DNA of 64,000 nucleotides from Escherichia phage MN03, in the sequence record NC_070990.1; one strand, given 5' to 3'. The stretch's first letter is position 1. Every line of letters begins with the position of its first letter. The position numbers and the translations under genes are program-made. Below, one piece after another: positions 5,910 through 64,000 of the stretch. The notes beneath the pieces are model-generated. The model made no database searches. It saw nothing but the letters and a program-made list of their open reading frames with translations, and had not been told where the DNA came from.

Positions 5910-8108
5910 ATGTCTAGAGAATTAATGCCCAAATCTGGTATAATGATGCCTCATGTGGTTGTAACCAGAGACGCGGCTGTTGTTGGGGTTTCTACTGTAG
6001 ATGGACAGGCTGGAGCTATTAACCTCACCGGAAAATATTTACAGAAAACCGACGCAGCTGCTACCTATCAAACTAAAACAGAGGGTGCATCTAAAGATTT
6101 TGTGCTGGATTCGATTCAACCTATTATGTCTGGTGCGCTGTTCCGAGAAGACCCTTGGGTTGTTAATGATACCCCATTCCGTTCTACTGGAGCTAATGGT
6201 GTAGAATCAGTTGATATGATGAAAGTTACTACTGATAACTCAATCAAGATTGGTAGTTATGCCTCTTCAGTTCAAGGTGTAGAGATTCATTCTGCTGGTC
6301 GTCTTCAGGTTGTTGACCAGAATGACTCTGGGGTAGAAACTAAGTATCCAGTTTATTCTAAACGTTACCGTCCTGAGATTGAGGATTTGCCTTTTGCTGC
6401 AATTGGTTCTTATGTTAAAGACTCTAAAGGTCGTACGGTAGGTGTTACTCGTACAGGGATTAACTCTGATATCAAACAGCTCACACAGAAAGTTACTTTC
6501 ACTCAACCAGTAACTGTCCCTGATGCAGTTGGTGATTATGATGCGGTGACTTTGAGACAGCTTCGAAACAGTGGTGGTGGCTCTGGTGGTCCTACGATGA
6601 GCGGTATCTCTAACTTTGGTATTGGTGATTTCCATTTACGTGACAGTCGAGCTTTTATTCCAGCTTTTGAGGTAACGTCAGACGGTCAGCTTCTTAATCG
6701 TTCAGAGTACCCAGATCTCTGGGCTTATGCACAGCTGTTATCCCCTATCTCAGATTCTGAATGGCTTAGTGATGCCCAAAAACGTGGACAGTACTCTACT
6801 GGTGATGGTTCTACTACTTTCCGCGTTCCAGACCGCAACGGGGTTCAGGTCGGTTCTATTAGGGAGCTATTTGGTCGCGGTGATGGTGGTACATCATCCA
6901 ACGATGGTGTTATCTATGATTCTGCTGCACCTAATATCAAAGGTAAGGTCGCTGGTGTATCAGCCGGGACTTATGCAGGGATATTCGGGACGTCTGTGCA
7001 AGATTCATTCTATACGGATAACAGTTTGTATCCGGCTGGTGGAGGGGACACTATACCTCCGGGGTCCGGTGCAGTTGATGGACGTAATAATACTCTAGTC
7101 TTCGACGCAAGCCAGTCCAACCCAGTTTATGGTCGTTATAGTATCTCTGACAACATTATACCGAGAAACTTTGTGGGGGTTTGGACTATTCGTGCTCATG
7201 GTGGATTTGTTGCTGCTAATACTTCTTGGTCTGTTATTAATAGTGACACCACACGACCTTCCAACGGAACGAAAGTTTCTAGTGGGTCAGTTGTCTCTGA
7301 GTATAAAATCGGTTCAGAAGTAGAAGCTTCTACTACTCTCAAAACTGATGCCTACATCAACGGAGCTTACTATGGAATCATTGACGTCTACAATAAAACT
7401 AAAGGAGTTACCAAGCAGTTAGCTTTCGACGATTCTGGTACACTGAATTCTGATAGGTATGTTTCTAGATTTGGCACTTTGATGTCTTGGAGTGAAACAG
7501 GAGCTAGGAAAGGAACATTCTCCATGGACAACCAAGGGCTAGGGTCTAACTTCTCCTTCAATTCCATACTAAGTGCTTCTCAATCATCTAGTGGGGGATA
7601 CAAGACCACCACTCATGTTGGCATGATTCACAACGACGCCGGAACTTTTGCCGATTCTTGCTGGCACGTTGCAGGTGATGAAGACAACAAATACGGTTGC
7701 CGTCTAACACTTCGACCAAACAGGAATGAGATTTTATATTATACTTGGCAACCCGGCTCTACTGGAACATACACTCTTGCTCTGAATCCCGTGTCAGATG
7801 AAAGATTAAAACATGATATCCAAGATATTTCCCCTGAGAAAGCTATCAAAGCTATTAAAGGTTTGGATTTCAAATCATTTGTGTATAACAATGATGAGCA
7901 AGGAAGAACTCGTCGTGGTATTATTGCACAGCAAGCAGAAAAGGTAGAACCTCTTTATGTTAAGACTCGTAGGTTCCACGACAATGATGGTGTAGAGCAA
8001 GAACAGAAAGAGCTAGACTCAGCTCCTATGCTCCTTGATACTATGCAGGTTGTTCAAGACCTTCTGAAGCGTATTGAAGTTCTAGAAGCAAAACTAGCAG
8101 AGAGGTAA
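5910..8108 (+). CDS. tail fibre/tailspike with C-terminal intramolecular chaperone (peptidase S74-like) domain
   Basis: C-terminal NPVSDERLKHDIQDI...GLDFKSFVY motif typical of self-cleaving endosialidase-type chaperone domains; 732 aa. Confidence 0.7.
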   Translation: MSRELMPKSGIMMPHVVVTRDAAVVGVSTVDGQAGAINLTGKYLQKTDAAATYQTKTEGASKDFVLDSIQPIMSGALFREDPWVVNDTPFRSTGANGVESVDMMKVTTDNSIKIGSYASSVQGVEIHSAGRLQVVDQNDSGVETKYPVYSKRYRPEIEDLPFAAIGSYVKDSKGRTVGVTRTGINSDIKQLTQKVTFTQPVTVPDAVGDYDAVTLRQLRNSGGGSGGPTMSGISNFGIGDFHLRDSRAFIPAFEVTSDGQLLNRSEYPDLWAYAQLLSPISDSEWLSDAQKRGQYSTGDGSTTFRVPDRNGVQVGSIRELFGRGDGGTSSNDGVIYDSAAPNIKGKVAGVSAGTYAGIFGTSVQDSFYTDNSLYPAGGGDTIPPGSGAVDGRNNTLVFDASQSNPVYGRYSISDNIIPRNFVGVWTIRAHGGFVAANTSWSVINSDTTRPSNGTKVSSGSVVSEYKIGSEVEASTTLKTDAYINGAYYGIIDVYNKTKGVTKQLAFDDSGTLNSDRYVSRFGTLMSWSETGARKGTFSMDNQGLGSNFSFNSILSASQSSSGGYKTTTHVGMIHNDAGTFADSCWHVAGDEDNKYGCRLTLRPNRNEILYYTWQPGSTGTYTLALNPVSDERLKHDIQDISPEKAIKAIKGLDFKSFVYNNDEQGRTRRGIIAQQAEKVEPLYVKTRRFHDNDGVEQEQKELDSAPMLLDTMQVVQDLLKRIEVLEAKLAER

Positions 8109-8448: not shown

Positions 8449-8940
8449 ATGGATAACGTCGCATTGCCACCTGTACAACTAAACTTAAGCCCAGCTGGAA
8501 TGGAATTCATCATGAAGCATGAGGGTATGAGAACAAAGGCTTATAAAGATTCCGCAGGTATCTGGACTATATGTGTAGGGGCTACGCGCGATATGAATGG
8601 TTATCCGGTTAGACAAGGATTAACGTATTCTATAGAGGATTGTCTAGCTCTGCTAGATAGAGACACACAAGACTCTGTTCGTGCTACTCAGAAGAACATA
8701 AAGGTTCCTTTACTAGTTCATGAGTTTGATGCACTCACTTCTTTCAACTTCAATGTTGGCAGTGGGGCTTTGAGCACATCTAAGTTAAGGAAGGTAATCA
8801 ATGGAGATGTTAAGGGGGATGTTTATTCCGAATTTCTTCGTTGGGATAAAATAACGGTCAAGGGAGAGAAGCAGAGAAGTCAGGGTCTTCATAATAGAAG
8901 AGTTGCAGAAGCTAATCTTTACACCGAAGGTAAATATTAA
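8449..8940 (+). CDS. lysozyme (GH24 phage lysozyme family)
   Basis: MKHEGMRTKAYKDSAGIWTICVG and FNFNVGSGAL motifs typical of T4 e / lambda R-type lysozymes. Confidence 0.75.
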   Translation: MDNVALPPVQLNLSPAGMEFIMKHEGMRTKAYKDSAGIWTICVGATRDMNGYPVRQGLTYSIEDCLALLDRDTQDSVRATQKNIKVPLLVHEFDALTSFNFNVGSGALSTSKLRKVINGDVKGDVYSEFLRWDKITVKGEKQRSQGLHNRRVAEANLYTEGKY

Positions 8941-14840: not shown

Positions 14841-15623
14841 ATGGCAATCAGAATGGGTATCGAAGAACTAGACCCAATGGTACAGCAAGCTTCAAAGAAG
14901 TATGGGATTCCTGCTGCTTTGATTCATGCTGTCATCCAAAGAGAGTCCAGTGGTCGTCCTACAGTGGCCTCTGGAACTGGTCCTGTAGGTTTAATGCAGA
15001 TCAGTAAAGGGTTGGCTAAAGATTACGGTTACAAACTAGAAGATAGACTTGACCCAGCAAAGAATATTGATATGGGCGCTCGTTACATAAGAGATAACTT
15101 AAAAGCTTTTAATGGTGATGTTAAGAAAGCAATGGTTGGTTATTCAGAAGGTATCGGTGGAGCTAAGCAAATGTTCGCTGGTAAAAAGGGGTTTACTCCA
15201 CAAGCTCTTGACTCCATGAACAATAAACACTTTCTTCCTTTCTATGGTGATGCAGCTTCTCAGATTGCTAACCCTGTTGGAGCTTTGCAAGCTGTTCAAC
15301 CAGTCAATCAGTTTAGTCCTGACTTGTTAGATAGAGAGAAGGCCGCACAAGCTCCAACTCAGGCAGAGATTGCTGCTTCTAAGACAGGTGCTTTAGGCGG
15401 AAATCCAGTAGAGTTTTACTCTGATGAAGTGCAGGAAGGCGAAAATCAGAAACCTCAACAGAACTTTGGTAATGCAGTATTAGGGGTAGCTGCTATGCTT
15501 GCTGGTAAACCTCCCACTTCTCAAACAGTTCAGAGGGCAAGTGCACCACATGCAGCAGGTTCTCAGTACAGTCCACAAACACAAGCAGTGCTCAGACGTC
15601 TGGCTAGCATTGGTGTAAAGTAA
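14841..15623 (+). CDS. virion-associated lytic transglycosylase (SLT domain)
   Basis: ALIHAVIQRESSGRP...GLMQIS motif of the SLT family. Confidence 0.65.
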   Translation: MAIRMGIEELDPMVQQASKKYGIPAALIHAVIQRESSGRPTVASGTGPVGLMQISKGLAKDYGYKLEDRLDPAKNIDMGARYIRDNLKAFNGDVKKAMVGYSEGIGGAKQMFAGKKGFTPQALDSMNNKHFLPFYGDAASQIANPVGALQAVQPVNQFSPDLLDREKAAQAPTQAEIAASKTGALGGNPVEFYSDEVQEGENQKPQQNFGNAVLGVAAMLAGKPPTSQTVQRASAPHAAGSQYSPQTQAVLRRLASIGVK

Positions 15624-59010: not shown

Positions 59011-59232
59011 TTAGTAAACTAAACCTGTAGCCTTTGCATCAGGCTGAGGGACTACTTTTGCACTAGGGCGATAGCCATCCACTGAGCCGTTCCAAAGATT
59101 GACACAGGTGATATATCCATCGTCTATGATGTCTGTTTTAATCCAGAAGTGTTTATCATGACCAAAAATACTTCCGTTTGGCAGCGTGGACAGCTCAACG
59201 GTTTTAAGTGACTGCTTAGAGTCTAGTTTCAT
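59011..59232 (-). CDS. small paralog family protein (GxVF family), member 7
   Basis: LSTLPNGSIFGHDKHFWIKTD. Confidence 0.4.
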   Translation of the reverse strand: MKLDSKQSLKTVELSTLPNGSIFGHDKHFWIKTDIIDDGYITCVNLWNGSVDGYRPSAKVVPQPDAKATGLVY

Positions 59233-59241
59233 ATAAGTTCC

Positions 59242-59439
59242 TTAATATACCAAACCATGTAAAAGAAACACCCTCTTTGTAAGCTCTGCTTTAGCTCTGT
59301 AATAAGCCTTAGAACCTAACAGGCGGCTCTTAACAAAGAACTTAATGTCATTGCTAACATCTTGTATTAAACGCTCCTGTACAGTTTCTGAGGAGTTATT
59401 AATCGAATCAATTAACACCTTTGTAGATGTGTAATTCAT
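59242..59439 (-). CDS. hypothetical protein
   Basis: Trimmed to an internal ATG next to the lipoprotein stop. Confidence 0.3.
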   Translation of the reverse strand: MNYTSTKVLIDSINNSSETVQERLIQDVSNDIKFFVKSRLLGSKAYYRAKAELTKRVFLLHGLVY

Positions 59440-59440
59440 A

Positions 59441-59740
59441 TCACCACTCCTTACCAGTGGTAACTGTAGAGCCACCACACCACAACGCTGTATCAATCAC
59501 AACATTATCCGGTGTAGATTTCTCTTCGTTGACAGAGGGGTTAGCATTAGAGCAGGTTGCTCCGTTCCAGCGCATATCAATTTCACCAGAAGGAACCTTC
59601 TCACCTTTATGCCAGCGAGAAACACAAACACCTTCCACTGCTACTGCACACCATCCATCAGGACGGCTCTGTACGCAGCCTGTAAGGGCTATGCAGACAA
59701 GGAAGATACAGATTAGGGATATTACACCACCCCAACTCAT
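59441..59740 (-). CDS. predicted lipoprotein
   Basis: Signal peptide with lipobox ALTGC; Cys-rich mature part. Confidence 0.5.
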   Translation of the reverse strand: MSWGGVISLICIFLVCIALTGCVQSRPDGWCAVAVEGVCVSRWHKGEKVPSGEIDMRWNGATCSNANPSVNEEKSTPDNVVIDTALWCGGSTVTTGKEW

Positions 59741-59759
59741 AACTGCCTCCTATTAGATT

Positions 59760-59835
59760 TGGTGCGCCCTACAGGACTCGAACCTGTAACCAATAGCTTA
59801 GAAGGCTACTGCTCTATCCATTGAGCTAAGAGCGC
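59760..59835 (-). tRNA. tRNA-Arg(UCU): tRNA-Arg (anticodon UCU)
   Basis: Manual fold: acceptor GCGCTCT/AGGGCGC, D-arm GCTC/GAGC, anticodon stem GTAGC/GCTAT with loop CTTCTAA, T-arm ACAGG-TTCGAGT-CCTGT, discriminator A, encoded CCA. Confidence 0.85.
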
Positions 59836-59843
59836 AGAATTAT

Positions 59844-60008
59844 TTAGATCATATCTCGCTTGGTGATATGACCACATGTTTTACATCGAAGTATATAACG
59901 AGTACCTGTGTCTTCTATTTGACCGATCTCATTGTATATGTGTAAACGAATTTCTTTTATTGTCTCCCAATCATGGAGATGGAAGAAACGTTTAAACCAC
60001 TTGAACAT
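59844..60008 (-). CDS. zinc-ribbon protein
   Basis: CKTCGH motif. Confidence 0.3.
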   Translation of the reverse strand: MFKWFKRFFHLHDWETIKEIRLHIYNEIGQIEDTGTRYILRCKTCGHITKRDMI

Positions 60009-60015
60009 ATTAACC

Positions 60016-60267
60016 TCAAGCACAAGCAGGGAGTGTGATGATTTTATGCTTACCATCAAACTCTCCAAATAAACCTAAGAATGTGGGACTGTAAGTACCA
60101 GTACAAACAAACTCATCAAACAATGCGTTATAACTAGGCTTAATCTTCCAAGCCCATACATAACCCATCTTGTCAATTGCAATATAACGAGTGTTCAGAG
60201 GAACAGCCATCATCACATCATTAACTGCAATCACTTTAGTTATTGGTGCAGCTTGGAAGTTTTTCAT
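60016..60267 (-). CDS. hypothetical protein
   Basis: ORF. Confidence 0.3.
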   Translation of the reverse strand: MKNFQAAPITKVIAVNDVMMAVPLNTRYIAIDKMGYVWAWKIKPSYNALFDEFVCTGTYSPTFLGLFGEFDGKHKIITLPACA

Positions 60268-60488
60268 CCTACTCTCCTAACGTTTAGGGTAGCTTGATAA
60301 AATTTGACAGGACAACTTCTGTCAAACGTAAATCTTGTTTCAGGATTATTTATACAGATAGCATGTCTGTGCATAACCTTCATATATAAAGGAGGTTTTG
60401 TATCCCCATCTATCTCTAGAGAGAACACATCACCATTACGGAGGCTACCAAAAGTGTTATCTTTAGGCTCAGAGCGAACGATAATCAT
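60264..60488 (-). CDS. small paralog family protein (GxVF family), member 6
   Basis: LRNGDVFSL. Confidence 0.4.
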   Translation of the reverse strand: MIIVRSEPKDNTFGSLRNGDVFSLEIDGDTKPPLYMKVMHRHAICINNPETRFTFDRSCPVKFYQATLNVRRVG

Positions 60489-60661
60489 ACTTTACCTTTG
60501 ATAAAAATATCATTACCACAGACACAGCATGAACGAACAACAGTAGCGCCACGCTGAACGATACGAACCTCTTCCTTAACCAGATTAATACGAGCACCGC
60601 AGCAAGGAGAGTTGACATAAGAGTAACCAGCTTGCGTATGTTTGATTGTTTGCTTAGACAT
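60488..60661 (-). CDS. Cys-rich zinc-ribbon protein (57 aa)
   Basis: Own translation; CCGAR ... CCVCGN. Confidence 0.3.
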
Positions 60662-60699
60662 TTTAGCTTCCTCTTGTTAGTTTAAGTAAGAGTTGTCCC

Positions 60700-60734
60700 T
60701 TAATTAAAACAACAAAGGCCGCCCGAAGGCAGCC
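60700..60734 (-). terminator. rho-independent terminator (minus strand)
   Basis: GGCTGCC-TTCG-GGCGGCC hairpin plus TTTGTTGTTTT on the minus strand. Confidence 0.55.
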
Positions 60735-61131
60735 TCTCTTTATTTGTTAACTGTTATACGTCCAATTACCTTGCTTGTTACGGATGGCTGACATTGCATG
60801 AATCCAAAAGCCTTCCAGTTTCAGAGCACCATTAGCTACTGCATCCATACGTTCAGGGCGGTTCATACGTTTGGTTGATACTTTCATACATATCTCTCTT
60901 TGTTAGTGGAGGCATTATTGCCAGTTGATATAAGGGATAGCCCTAGTCAGGAGGCTAATTCTGACCGCGTACTCATTGCCGACCTTCTCTGCCTAAGAGT
61001 TCAGGTTCTAGAGCTATCTCTTATTCCAACTGGTGAAGACTTCCTACCCCTAGGAAGTCTCCTGAATCCCAAACCAATACGTACCCCTACATATTGGAAA
61101 GTCTTTCGAAAATTAACAGGTTTTAGTCTAG

Positions 61132-61245
61132 CACCGGATGTTCGAGCAAGCTCTCCCTAGCGGTGTGGCATATGCCTGAATTAATAAGTTAATGAGGAAC
61201 ACCCTCACATAGCCCTCTGATAAACACAAGGGCTATAAGTCGGTG
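61132..61245. repeat. conserved noncoding element, copy B, inside a 355-bp gene-free gap
   Basis: Same three blocks and hairpin as copy A; begins right after a minus-strand stop codon. Confidence 0.5.
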
Positions 61246-61464
61246 TTACTTTTGGGATAAACACAGATCGGGACGTGGCATAACAGTGGTTGATAGACCG
61301 AAGACTTCAACAGAACCACTGCTCAAGTTAGCAGCCTTACACAAACCATCAGGGGTTTTATCTTCTAGCATCAGCCAGAAACGTTTATCATAAGAGAAAA
61401 CATCACCACCTTTAACGTCCTCTGCATTTGCATATTTAGGATAATCAACTACTTTAATTTCCAT
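61246..61464 (-). CDS. small paralog family protein (GxVF family), member 5
   Basis: VKGGDVFSYDKRFWLM. Confidence 0.4.
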   Translation of the reverse strand: MEIKVVDYPKYANAEDVKGGDVFSYDKRFWLMLEDKTPDGLCKAANLSSGSVEVFGLSTTVMPRPDLCLSQK

Positions 61465-61474
61465 CTAATTGCCC

Positions 61475-61693
61475 TTATTGATATATAGAAAGGTGGATAA
61501 GTTTATTAACATGAGCGAAGTTAGGAAGGATTTGCATCTCATTGTTGAAGATATTAAAACAACGAACCCCGCCCTCTACAGCATAAGCAGATTTCTGAAA
61601 CAGACTGCCTCCCCACACAAATACATCATGTGTTTCAAGAGATCGTAACTGAACAGCCTCGTCAACAACCTTCTTTTCAATGTTCATATTCAC
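61475..61693 (-). CDS. small paralog family protein (GxVF family), member 4
   Basis: LRSLETHDVFVW. Confidence 0.4.
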   Translation of the reverse strand: MNMNIEKKVVDEAVQLRSLETHDVFVWGGSLFQKSAYAVEGGVRCFNIFNNEMQILPNFAHVNKLIHLSIYQ

Positions 61694-61941
61694 TTCCGAT
61701 TGGTAATTACTGCATCATGGATAACTGAAACAGGTAAGTTTGAATCTAGCTTCATTACTTGATTGGTGCTTAAACTGAGCACTACACAACCATTCCGAAG
61801 ATCAGTCTCTGACACATGTGGTGTATATAACTGAACGATCATGTAATAATCAATACATGTTGCCTTAACTTGGAATACATCACCAAGTTTCAAATCACCC
61901 ACACACAATTCTTTAGCTTTCATCTTAAGATCAATCTTCAT
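61690..61941 (-). CDS. small paralog family protein (GxVF family), member 3
   Basis: LKLGDVFQV. Confidence 0.4.
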   Translation of the reverse strand: MKIDLKMKAKELCVGDLKLGDVFQVKATCIDYYMIVQLYTPHVSETDLRNGCVVLSLSTNQVMKLDSNLPVSVIHDAVITNRK

Positions 61942-62167
61942 CTTTAGCCTCTATGTTGGTTATGTGAAGATCACTACGTACTTGGCAGACTTCATCCCGT
62001 TTAAAAGGCATGAGCTTTCCAGTTACCACATCAACACAGTTGACATAATTGTCTGCGTACAATGTGTCGGTTCTGATGTAAAGGGATTCTTTACGCTCAA
62101 ACAGAACCCCCGGCTTCATGTTATTTAAGCGAAGCATTGTACGATCGGATTTAATATTAACTTTCAT
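61931..62167 (-). CDS. small paralog family protein (GxVF family), member 2
   Basis: MKPGVLFER. Confidence 0.4.
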   Translation of the reverse strand: MKVNIKSDRTMLRLNNMKPGVLFERKESLYIRTDTLYADNYVNCVDVVTGKLMPFKRDEVCQVRSDLHITNIEAKDED

Positions 62168-62169
62168 CT

Positions 62170-62427
62170 TTAATCCACCTTATTGGTAAGTCGAGCATTA
62201 TCAACTACCTGAACAACAGTATCTTTTCTCAACATTGTTATTCTATCCGAAGTGAGATCTACTACTACTCTTTCGTCAGGCTTCCAACTAGCTGAATAAA
62301 CGGTTGAGGAATCTAGCTTTACTGTAAGATATATTTTATTTTTAGGTGGAACAGTTTCAAAAACACTCCCCACCTTCAGGTCTTTCAGTTGCTTGACTAC
62401 AGGGGCTGTATTAATATCATGCTTCAT
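62170..62427 (-). CDS. small paralog family protein (GxVF family), member 1
   Basis: Trimmed to MKHDINT with AGGAG RBS; LKVGSVFE. Confidence 0.4.
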   Translation of the reverse strand: MKHDINTAPVVKQLKDLKVGSVFETVPPKNKIYLTVKLDSSTVYSASWKPDERVVVDLTSDRITMLRKDTVVQVVDNARLTNKVD

Positions 62428-62713
62428 TGTTAATCTCCTGCTGTTTAGCAATAGCCACTCGCAAGTCTTCATTAGCACGAGCAAGGCGTAACACTTCGTG
62501 GTTGAGGTTCTGAAGACGCTTGTTTCTGTCCTCTACTTGCATAATAAGATCGTTAAGTGTTACTTTAACTTTCTCATTATACATCTCATCCACTCGAACT
62601 AGGGATTTATACATTCTCTCCCAGCTTGCTGCTTTGTTTCTGAGAATAATAAATCCTAGAACGCTGATAGTTAAACAGCTTACAAAAAGGAATTTATATA
62701 CTTCTAAAGTCAT
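62417..62713 (-). CDS. small membrane / coiled-coil protein
   Basis: N-terminal TM then a heptad-rich helix; first gene after an AT-rich intergenic region. Confidence 0.4.
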   Translation of the reverse strand: MTLEVYKFLFVSCLTISVLGFIILRNKAASWERMYKSLVRVDEMYNEKVKVTLNDLIMQVEDRNKRLQNLNHEVLRLARANEDLRVAIAKQQEINNEA

Positions 62714-62913
62714 ATCATTTTACCCTTTATCAGAGATTAAAAGTAATATTATTTAAGTAAGTTATATTTAGTAAACTTATTTTCTAAGAAATTTTCAAAG
62801 GGTCTATATACAGAGCATTACCCATAGTCCCAGAATACTACCATCTTTTTCAATAAATTTACTAAGTGGTTGGTTTATAAAGGAATTTAGTTTGTCAAAT
62901 CTGGCACTAGTGA

Positions 62914-63303
62914 TTATTCCCTAGAGCTATTATCGAACACTAAATCACCACAATACATAGGATTGGCATACCATTTTGGCACCCCTTCGCTCTTACTCTG
63001 AAAGTAAGTCCCACTGTACAGCGGAACATAATTCTTCTTAAGGGCACGTTTAGCAAGTCGCTCGCTTTCTCCAATGGCTTGCTTAGTCATCGGATTTTTA
63101 TCACGAATCAGCTTTACATAACGTTTATAAGGTTTCTCCTGTTTTAATAGTACCGGAATCCACTCAAACTGGTTCTTCTGTCTTATCACCTGTTCAGCGG
63201 TCAGTTTTCGTTGGGCCATTCTATTTATCACGGTATCCGCAACTAAAGCCTTACATGCGGTTGGCTGATTCCCTGCCTCATAATAAATAGTCAATGTCAA
63301 CAT
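62914..63303 (-). CDS. cell-wall hydrolase, SleB/CwlJ-like
   Basis: IYYEAGNQP ... VINRM ... QVIRQKNQF ... YSGTYF ... GDLVF pattern; weak RBS. Confidence 0.5.
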   Translation of the reverse strand: MLTLTIYYEAGNQPTACKALVADTVINRMAQRKLTAEQVIRQKNQFEWIPVLLKQEKPYKRYVKLIRDKNPMTKQAIGESERLAKRALKKNYVPLYSGTYFQSKSEGVPKWYANPMYCGDLVFDNSSRE

Positions 63304-63379
63304 TAGCTGTGCCGTTGTTATCAGAACTTGCTACCTCCTGTTTTGTTGTTTCAATAAACACCCTCGAAAAGATGCTTAT

Positions 63380-63408
63380 AGAAACACCCCTCCCTTTCGG
63401 GAGAGGCA
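63380..63408 (-). terminator. rho-independent terminator (minus strand)
   Basis: CCTCTCCC-GAAA-GGGAGGGG hairpin right after the stop at 63414. Confidence 0.5.
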
Positions 63409-63413
63409 CTATC

Positions 63414-64000
63414 TTACCACTCGTAACTTACACCAGCGCCCAGAACAGCGTCACTCTCTGAAGTCATTGCCACTGATGCTTTAGTTACTAAGTTTTCATT
63501 GAAACGAGCACTAACACCAATAGCAAGAGCAGATTCACCATCGTAAGCACCTACCCCAGCACCAACAGAGAAAGCAGATCCTTGACTTACTTGCGGGATG
63601 TTAGCCATTGCAGCCACGCCAGAAATACCAGCAGAGGCATGATCACGGTTACGGTCTACTTGTTTTTGCAAAGAAGCAAAACGTTTATTGGTGGATTGTT
63701 CCAGAGCTTTGATGGATTTGGCGTTAGCATTAACGGCAGACATATCTGCATCTTTACCGTTTTTGCCATTTAATCCGTCAACGCCATTCAAACCTGCTGC
63801 ACCAGTTAGGCCAGTTTCGCCTTTCTTACCATCTGCACCAGAATCACCTTTTTCACCTTGAGCGCCTTGTTCTCCATCAATGCCATCTTTACCATCAATG
63901 CCATCTTTACCATCAATGCCATCTTTACCATCAATGCCATCTTTACCATCAATGCCATCTTTACCATCAATGCCATCTTTACCATCAATGCCATCAATGC
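63414..64000 (-). CDS. collagen-like repeat protein with YadA-type C-terminal anchor domain (5' end outside window)
   Basis: Frame is open to the window edge and reads (GIDGKD)n GEQGAQGEKGDSGADGKK...; C-terminus ...AAMANIPQ...FSVGAGVGAYDGESALAIGVSARFNENL...GAGVSYEW resembles YadA. Confidence 0.55.
   Translation of the reverse strand, partial: IDGIDGKDGIDGKDGIDGKDGIDGKDGIDGKDGIDGKDGIDGEQGAQGEKGDSGADGKKGETGLTGAAGLNGVDGLNGKNGKDADMSAVNANAKSIKALEQSTNKRFASLQKQVDRNRDHASAGISGVAAMANIPQVSQGSAFSVGAGVGAYDGESALAIGVSARFNENLVTKASVAMTSESDAVLGAGVSYEW
63880..64000. repeat. 18-bp tandem repeat (ACCATCAATGCCATCTTT), about 7 copies, coding collagen-like G-X-Y repeats
   Basis: Perfect tandem units; in frame with the minus-strand CDS. 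Confidence 0.8.

Follow-up and report, generated by a model that had tools for sequence, protein, structure and literature searches.

Some phiEco32-like virulent coliphages carry an accessory gene for a collagen-stalked protein with a YadA-type anchor, likely a minimal trimeric autotransporter

The DNA analysed here, called the window below, is a stretch of 64,000 nucleotides from Escherichia phage MN03 (NC_070990.1). When positions 62700-64000 were compared with a phage collection by megablast, 98 records matched, nearly all of them from Escherichia and Shigella phages of the phiEco32 group, here Kuravirus (Gordonclarkvirinae). SkaterBoy_Bas90 is 99.4% identical across the whole query and phiEco32 98.8%. 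The minus strand at the right end of the window carries the 3' part of a gene encoding a putative trimeric autotransporter (TAA), referred to as the TAA gene in the following. The features at the locus are:

62914..63303, minus strand: gene for a Hydrolase_2 (SleB/CwlJ-type) protein of 129 aa (Pfam PF07486; PHROG 12974)
63278..63409, minus strand: 43-aa ORF, a homolog of phi32_118, from the ORF list; it begins inside the terminator hairpin
63380..63406, minus strand: terminator-like hairpin (CCTCTCCC-GAAA-GGGAGGGG, then TGTTTCT), read from the sequence, directly 3' of the stop codon of the TAA gene
63414..64000, minus strand: 3' part of the TAA gene, 194 codons plus stop (translation; PHROG 26246, E=1.6e-81)
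63417..63596, minus strand: YadA-type membrane anchor with four predicted beta-strands per chain (Pfam YadA_anchor; PDB and Foldseek matches)
63597..63749, minus strand: collagen-to-helix junction (GKDADMSAVNAN), coiled-coil segment and would-be pore helix (AF2 of ortholog P0002; alignment)
63750..64000, minus strand: collagen-like Gly-X-Y tract, running past the window edge (Pfam Collagen, E=8.3e-17)
63874..63995, minus strand: perfect 18-bp tandem array with the unit GGCATTGATGGTAAAGAT on the coding strand, encoding (GIDGKD)n (Tandem Repeats Finder)

Translation of 63998..63414 on the minus strand gives 194 codons with the C-terminal end ...GAGVSYEW, followed by a TAA stop codon at 63414-63416. 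The sequence-only reading of this DNA had stated that the gene runs off the window, and indeed the frame is open to 64000; the 5' end with the signal peptide, a Cys-loop tip and the first Gly-X-Y triplets lies beyond this position. The gene is the ortholog of phi32_119 of phiEco32 and of Bas90_0117 of SkaterBoy, with 98-100% identity in the shared part. Alternative frames across the repeat, among them MMALMVKMALMVK... and the ORFs of the plus strand, were discarded as its by-products, since only the Gly-X-Y frame continues into the anchor. Host DNA flanking the phage had been considered as well; however, complete phage genomes align collinearly with the window and the gene was found in none of 5,426 complete E. 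coli genomes searched, which rules out a host origin.

The 18-bp repeat forms a single array of period 18 with 6.8 copies, 100% matches and no indels. At the protein level it gives six complete GIDGKD hexapeptides and then GIDGEQ, with a GID-GID variant at the window edge. Thus, where at least seven perfect repeats encoding GIDGKD had been proposed, the perfection of the repeat stands and the count was slightly generous. The array is embedded in a longer Gly-X-Y tract, also as proposed, which comprises 27 unbroken triplets in the window (fragment residues 3-83) and 12-37 triplets in the orthologs; on the fragment the Pfam Collagen model scores 61.2 bits against a cut-off of 27.2. The tract contains no proline, 38-39% of its residues are charged and it is net acidic, with lysine and isoleucine in X and aspartate in Y. 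In the characterised E. coli prophage collagens, about half of the X positions are proline, and acidic residues are found in X and basic ones in Y (PMC3368898). Because the tract lacks proline and its charge placement is reversed compared to these collagens, a stable triple helix at 37 °C can be called plausible but not more. With 0.286 nm per residue, the predicted rod would measure about 10 nm for the 12 triplets of KM01 and about 29-32 nm for the 34-37 triplets of SkaterBoy and EcM-vB1. A proline-free collagen-like stalk on a trimerising anchor might be of interest to collagen and surface-display engineers.

The Gly-X-Y tract is followed by a helical segment, in agreement with the coiled coil proposed at this place, and by the anchor. 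Pfam YadA_anchor (PF03895) matches residues 135-194 over the full length of the model (positions 1-60 of 60; E=7.6e-20, 71.2 bits against a cut-off of 22.7), and the last residue is a tryptophan that at least 90% of 32 relatives share. The YadA-like C-terminus ending in W was therefore correctly recognised from the sequence. A PDB sequence search returned YadA 2lme (4.6e-8) and Hia 2gr7. For structure prediction the ortholog P0002 (226 aa) was modelled as a monomer with AF2, using an alignment of 32 sequences. The model consists of a single long helix (110-164) and four strands (175-224), with block-mean pLDDT values of about 84-92 in the anchor strands and along most of the helix (about 77-91 for most of the helix alone). 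The values drop to about 56-77 at the collagen-proximal end of the helix and stay below 50 in the collagen tract and the tip. In a Foldseek search of this model against the PDB, five significant matches were obtained, all of them anchors of Hia (3emo, 2gr7, 2gr8), AtaA (9vnj) and YadA (2lme), with prob 1.0 and TMt of 0.68-0.87. Among the 32 family members, the junction from the tract to the helix, GKDADM-x-VNAN, is nearly invariant, with the invariant columns G..G..GK.AD.

The part of the protein missing from the window was read from orthologs. Starting at an in-frame ATG that follows AGGAA, the N-terminus consists of MKAIVLSSILALSVMASPVIA, then, behind the likely cleavage site, of KSGNNGNGNGGCGVGQSTNGCGIGDWF, and then of the Gly-X-Y run. 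MKAIVLSSILALSVMASPVIA is predicted to be a Sec signal peptide that is cleaved before KSG, judged from hydrophobicity windows and the cleavage-site pattern in orthologs 98-100% identical to the window. The hydrophobic core reaches window values of 1.8-2.5 (Kyte-Doolittle) and ends in V-I-A, followed by K, at the likely cleavage site. A Sec-type signal peptide is predicted in every N-terminally complete ortholog or relative inspected, including the distant relatives that were read. Between the signal peptide and the Gly-X-Y run lies a tip that contains two cysteines and is about 25 residues long; EcM-vB1 and metagenomic relatives carry a second tip allele, HSDKCxxxKxCE, also with two cysteines. 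The deposited coding sequences start at a TTG more than 40 codons upstream of this ATG and thereby span two terminator-like hairpins. These TTG starts are probably wrong, and the ATG that gives the signal peptide is the likely true start.

With the orthologs supplying the signal peptide and the Cys-loop tip, a minimal trimeric autotransporter is complete. The proposal of a trimeric-autotransporter-like architecture is thus borne out by the order of signal peptide, stalk, helix and four-strand anchor, with the N-terminus taken from orthologs. In trimeric autotransporters the C-terminal aromatic residue serves as the beta-signal for BAM. The hallmarks of type Vc systems are present, namely the anchor, the Sec signal peptide (in the orthologs) and the C-terminal aromatic residue; the trimer and its membrane insertion are predicted. 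We consider it likely that the gene encodes a minimal trimeric autotransporter and is an accessory gene in a subset of phiEco32-like virulent coliphages.

The TAA gene follows phi32_124-120 in the leftward arm, which is made up of small genes. The tail fibre, endolysin and ejection genes, at the left of the window, are about 40 kb away. In SU10/phiEco32 the CDS 69-125 of this arm form the early class, which is transcribed by the host sigma70 RNA polymerase (PMC4281155; PMC12276001). By gene position only, the TAA gene may be assigned to this early class. It is carried by 13 of the 98 related phage records. The relatives without it are 97-99% identical in the flank and thus as close as the phages that carry the gene. 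Its boundaries were taken from an alignment of the window with 172-1, MN05 and SkaterBoy. In MN05 the upstream region with two hairpins is joined straight to the leader of the hydrolase gene, giving a clean junction in the alignment. In 172-1 an HTH gene ending in ...GVSYK occupies the slot, and the last codons of the TAA gene (GVSY) are kept together with its terminator; this 3' remnant shows that the TAA gene has been replaced there. The gene therefore shows the presence/absence pattern of a moron, with sharp boundaries among near-identical genomes.

The earlier reading had left open whether the protein is a trimeric fibre or the product of a cargo gene. In the first case the collagen rod would be an appendage of the phage, a fibre or whisker, and the YadA-like C-terminus would merely be a trimerisation or folding module, as in many collagen-bearing tail fibres. 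The PHROG family is labelled 'tail protein' and many collagen-containing PHROG matches are tail fibres, GenBank uses 'tail protein' or 'tail fibers protein', and gp092 of fHe-Yen8-01, a TAA of a Yersinia phage, is annotated as 'receptor binding protein; phage particle associated protein' (a literature search found no paper on fHe-Yen8-01). However, the 'tail' labels are automatic annotations, and we consider them probably wrong. Virions assemble in the cytoplasm, which the protein would leave by means of the Sec signal peptide predicted in all N-terminally complete copies inspected. With its terminal aromatic residue, the anchor makes up an entire beta-barrel module and is more than a coiled coil. 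Moreover, the gene is located in the early arm, well away from the tail module, and is missing from 85 of the 98 related records in an otherwise 97-99% identical flank, so that neither a place in the structural module nor conservation among close relatives is seen for it. Taken together, the signal peptide, the early arm about 40 kb from the tail genes, the occurrence in 13 of 98 records and the gene's own terminator favour a cargo gene, and a virion fibre appears very unlikely. The protein would most probably be located on the surface of the infected cell and not on the virus particle.

Terminator-like hairpins are present on both sides of the TAA ORF, two of them directly upstream, and the downstream one has a matching hairpin in SkaterBoy (L001 5706-5689). 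The 43-aa ORF is probably not a real gene, since its start falls within the downstream hairpin. A promoter scan found no sigma70-like promoter between the upstream terminators and the ATG. At 15 nt before the ATG, the sequence TACTGTATA agrees with the motif TAATGTATA of the phage sigma factor in 8 of 9 positions; it was set aside, as by our estimate about two such matches are expected by chance in 11 kb and the transcript would start downstream of the ribosome-binding site and hence lack it. With two hairpins upstream and no convincing promoter, expression may be low and occur via read-through.

The neighbouring gene (62914-63303, minus strand) had been described as a SleB-like hydrolase adjoining the collagen gene, and Hydrolase_2 (PF07486) does match its product with 32.2 bits (cut-off 27; E=1.7e-7; model positions 2-85 of 100). 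When the hydrolase was searched against PDB sequences, no SleB match and only noise came up, so that the assignment to the SleB type is a modest one. By eye, YYEAGNQ at the start of the protein would correspond to the catalytic-Glu motif of SleB/CwlJ enzymes. The window also encodes a Phage_lysozyme (8449-8940, E=3.7e-32) and an SLT transglycosylase (14841-15623, E=1.2e-23), and the hydrolase is the third muralytic type in it, as had been noted.

As the two genes adjoin on one strand and both products relate to the cell envelope, the TAA and the hydrolase could form a joint accessory module for lysis or entry that disrupts the envelope. However, the hydrolase gene is kept in relatives without the TAA gene (97-99% identity) and a terminator separates the two, which argues that they are no functional pair; the link implied by naming them together is not upheld. 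In addition, no signal peptide was found in the hydrolase, and holin, endolysin and spanin are already encoded elsewhere in the phage. We regard such a joint module as highly improbable.

A comparison of repeat number among related phages had been suggested from the sequence, and ten related loci were fetched and translated. The copy number varies from 0 to at least 9 and the array is always in frame. The numbers of GIDGKD copies are:

KM01: 0
EK5: 1
phiEco32: 2
phiEc_1: 4
Ec3-ASingh: 5
FS2B: at least 5
window: at least 6
SkaterBoy: 7
PGN6866: at least 9

Differences in array length among the relatives are invariably multiples of 18 bp, and thus only the length of the rod changes and the frame stays intact. 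The records of FS2B and PGN6866 end within the array and that of ShigP1 contains a run of N at this place; therefore, deposited counts of long arrays may be unreliable. Several deposited assemblies are interrupted or cut short by the perfect 18-bp array.

Outside the array, 147 codons were compared in 11 phages. Twelve codons are polymorphic with synonymous changes only and four show conservative replacements; with 107 synonymous and 334 non-synonymous sites in these codons the ratio is about 0.1. Wherever the record of a phage spans the whole TAA ORF, the ORF is intact. The TAA gene outside the repeat evolves under purifying selection and is kept by selection.

A search of the protein database showed that the best 120 matches are almost all of the Collagen plus YadA_anchor type, many of them encoded on contigs with the lengths of phage genomes (70-77 kb or about 45 kb). 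With tblastn, homologs of the anchor were found in 77 phage records, including kuraviruses, the Agtrevirus SKML-39, the jumbo phages GAP32, fHe-Yen9-04, 7t3 and XbC2, T4-like Yersinia phages, and Erwinia, Pantoea and Aeromonas phages; SU10 is absent among the tblastn matches listed. The homologs of Salmonella Ithacavirus are 57-60% identical and also have a collagen stalk. In SP-058, one of these phages, the gene lies between early genes, beside the dUTPase. Leclercia, Enterobacter, Scandinavium, Cedecea, Citrobacter and others have chromosomal relatives of the coil and anchor; these are 55-68% identical, and most of them have no collagen tract. Ewingella americana (L028) has a chromosomal version with a GIDGKDG-type stalk of 49 triplets and the same junction, and P0097 is another chromosomal TAA with a collagen stalk.

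These chromosomal genes bear on the possibility that the TAA gene is passive cargo, an adhesin or virulence gene picked up from an enterobacterial host that is of no benefit to the phage and matters only if it is passed on to bacteria. It was listed as a putative virulence gene by Moreno Switt et al. 2013 (PMC3728262), the closest chromosomal relatives of its coil and anchor are the enterobacterial TAAs with 55-68% identity (Leclercia, Enterobacter, Scandinavium, Cedecea, Citrobacter), and collagen-stalked TAAs do exist on chromosomes (Ewingella L028, P0097). However, a virulent phage offers no route to stable transfer, and none of the 5,426 complete E. coli genomes carries the gene. Replacements are far fewer than synonymous changes, the complete phage copies have an intact ORF, and the same architecture recurs across unrelated virulent phage families. 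Passive carriage is therefore unlikely in our judgement.

The identification of the gene as such is already known; it has been annotated in GenBank since the phiEco32 genome was deposited and was described in the 2013 paper. Moreno Switt et al. 2013 reported a yadA homologue in phiEco32 and in the Salmonella phages FSL SP-058 and SP-076, found that these homologues are not located beside tail genes and listed them as a putative virulence gene (PMC3728262). Orthologs are labelled 'agglutinating adhesin' (phi32_119), 'YadA-like protein' (EcM-vB1) and 'tail protein' or 'hypothetical protein' elsewhere. The present analysis adds the likely true start with its signal peptide, the variation from 0 to at least 9 copies of the 18-bp unit, the clean boundaries of the cassette and the proline-free stalk. 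It also raises the question why lytic phages of many families keep, under purifying selection, a predicted Sec/BAM-dependent autotransporter of the outer membrane.

For the favoured minimal trimeric autotransporter the following course can be proposed. The host RNA polymerase would transcribe the gene early, probably at a low level, by read-through from early promoters. The precursor would cross the inner membrane via Sec, and three C-termini, assembled by BAM, would build up an outer-membrane barrel of 12 strands, through which the passenger would be threaded out C-terminus first. The coiled coil beside the barrel would fold first and nucleate the zippering of the proline-free, highly charged collagen-like rod from the C- to the N-terminus. 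The resulting acidic rod, with a disulfide-looped tip at its end, would be about 10 to 30 nm long depending on the repeat number. Its length would be adjusted by slippage in the 18-bp array, with the frame kept intact.

In type Vc secretion, passengers of TAAs emerge C-terminus first. Collagen helices nucleate C-terminally and zip towards the N-terminus (PMC11923368). The order of collagen, coiled coil and anchor in the protein would thus suit folding during export.

What the rods do is the most speculative part of the proposal. Short acidic rods could coat the infected cell and alter the contact of phages or cells with its surface, and our best guess for the function is a remodelling of the infected-cell surface. 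Candidate roles would be the exclusion of superinfecting phages, a block of progeny adsorption to debris by masking of receptors, and clumping with neighbouring hosts. A literature search on phage-encoded trimeric autotransporters and superinfection exclusion found no paper joining both. SkaterBoy (Bas90), a member of the BASEL collection, can infect E. coli K-12 in which the O16 O-antigen is restored, so that a knockout test would be feasible; the gene is unmentioned in the BASEL paper.

More broadly, and rather tentatively, virulent phages from six or more unrelated lineages (among them Kuravirus, Ithacavirus, Agtrevirus, jumbo phages, T4-like Yersinia phages, and Erwinia, Pantoea and Aeromonas phages) might plant a short TAA in the outer membrane of the doomed cell, and such rods could be a class of phage-encoded surface remodelling. 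The passenger of Kuravirus and Ithacavirus would then be a bare collagen-like rod, in kuraviruses with a length set by the slippage-prone 18-bp array. If this were true, the rods would act as a steric or electrostatic fence or as glue, which excludes competitors, spares progeny from debris or tethers infected cells to fresh hosts.

Among known systems, T5 Llp, phi80 Cor and lipoproteins of the Ltp type offer a possible functional analogy only, as envelope proteins made during infection that block adsorption or entry. They are unrelated to the phage TAA in sequence and fold, and a role of the TAA in exclusion is hypothetical.

The EPclA-type tail-fibre proteins from prophages of E. coli O157:H7 resemble the TAA in that a phage Gly-X-Y domain stands beside a trimeric coiled coil (PMC3368898). 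However, EPcl proteins have N- and C-terminal domains of phage fibres and neither signal peptide nor anchor. About half of their X positions are proline, with acidic residues in X and basic ones in Y, whereas the phage TAA has no proline and the reversed charge pattern. The VtaA proteins of Glaesserella (Haemophilus) parasuis are TAAs with a YadA anchor, many of which carry collagen triple-helix repeats (PMC6211672). Judged by their description they are set apart from the phage TAA as chromosomal, much larger, multi-domain virulence factors.

The same gene at the same locus is gp119 of phiEco32 (phi32_119, ABY52920) with its Kuravirus orthologs, which are 98-100% identical outside the repeat. 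In the comparison with gp119, the number of 18-bp units alone differs, being 2 in phiEco32 and at least 6 in the window. With YadA (Yersinia), Hia (Haemophilus) and AtaA (Acinetobacter) the phage protein shares the signal peptide, the coiled-coil stalk, the anchor with four strands per chain and the terminal aromatic residue. In contrast to these, it lacks a head domain and any of the usual connectors of the stalk, and its passenger is almost entirely a collagen-like rod plus the tip of about 25 residues. The mature protein is also small, about 175-240 aa, and it is encoded by a virulent phage.

The immunoglobulin-binding Eib proteins are prophage-encoded TAAs of E. coli. They belong to temperate prophages, are expressed by lysogens and have passengers made of coiled coil and beta-roll that contain no collagen. 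The likeness is that an E. coli phage carries a TAA. Unlike the Eib genes, the gene described here resides in a virulent phage, is absent from the 5,426 complete E. coli genomes and encodes a collagen-like passenger.

The slot that holds the trimeric-autotransporter (TAA) gene (63414..64000, minus strand) acts as a hot spot at which accessory genes are exchanged by recombination. In phage 172-1 a gene for an Xre-type HTH protein has replaced the TAA gene, and its final codons (encoding GVSY) as well as its terminator come from the TAA gene.

L003 (phage 172-1) 2865-3182, Xre-type HTH protein of 105 aa, occupying the TAA-gene slot

Upstream of the TAA gene, just past the right edge of the window, two hairpins are placed in SkaterBoy between the homolog of phi32_120 and the TAA start codon. 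Both are kept in the relative MN05, where the TAA gene is missing. The deposited TAA coding sequences begin at TTG codons upstream of both hairpins, and these starts are very likely a misannotation of the start codon.

L001 (SkaterBoy) 6502-6640, two strong terminator-like hairpins

On the 3' side of the TAA gene a small ORF is annotated as phi32_118/Bas90_0116. Its start codon falls within the TAA gene's terminator hairpin, and the ORF overlaps the start of the neighbouring SleB/CwlJ-type hydrolase gene; it is probably not a gene.

63278-63409, minus strand, 43-aa ORF with GTG start

Within the TAA gene itself, the perfect 18-bp tandem array is the point at which the deposited genomes of PGN6866 and FS2B stop, and at this position the ShigP1 record shows a stretch of N. 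For these phages, the repeat breaks assemblies built from short reads.

In the early arm at least seven small ORFs (72-85 aa, window 59011-62484, minus strand) look like paralogs of one family. The pattern MK...L(K/R)xGDVF...C.NL... is common to the seven listed here, four of the family are arranged in tandem, and the other members align pairwise with the first at 14-30% identity.

59011-59232, minus strand, member 1, common pattern
60264-60488, minus strand, member 2, common pattern
61246-61464, minus strand, member 3, common pattern
61475-61693, minus strand, member 4, common pattern
61690-61941, minus strand, member 5, common pattern
61931-62167, minus strand, member 6, common pattern
62170-62427, minus strand, member 7, common pattern

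Three further features were noted in this arm.

62417-62713, minus strand, 98-aa ORF, given as 'DNA helicase' in several records
59760-59835, minus strand, tRNA-Arg (anticodon TCT)
59441-59740, minus strand, 99-aa ORF with a hydrophobic N-terminal stretch and a lipobox-like LTGC

The 98-aa ORF has a transmembrane-like segment at the N-terminus and a coiled-coil-like tail, and as a Pfam search with it gave no match, the helicase label looks unfounded. The tRNA-Arg is annotated in phiEco32 and SkaterBoy too. The 99-aa ORF is the positional counterpart of phi32_106, annotated as 'putative phage lipoprotein', and would be a further envelope-targeted early product besides the TAA; as a superinfection-exclusion candidate it would be more conventional than the TAA.

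In other virulent phages, collagen-stalk TAA genes are located close to genes of the tellurite-resistance type, namely TerC and TelA in a metagenomic phage contig (L015) and TerB in Salmonella phage FSL SP-058 (L020).
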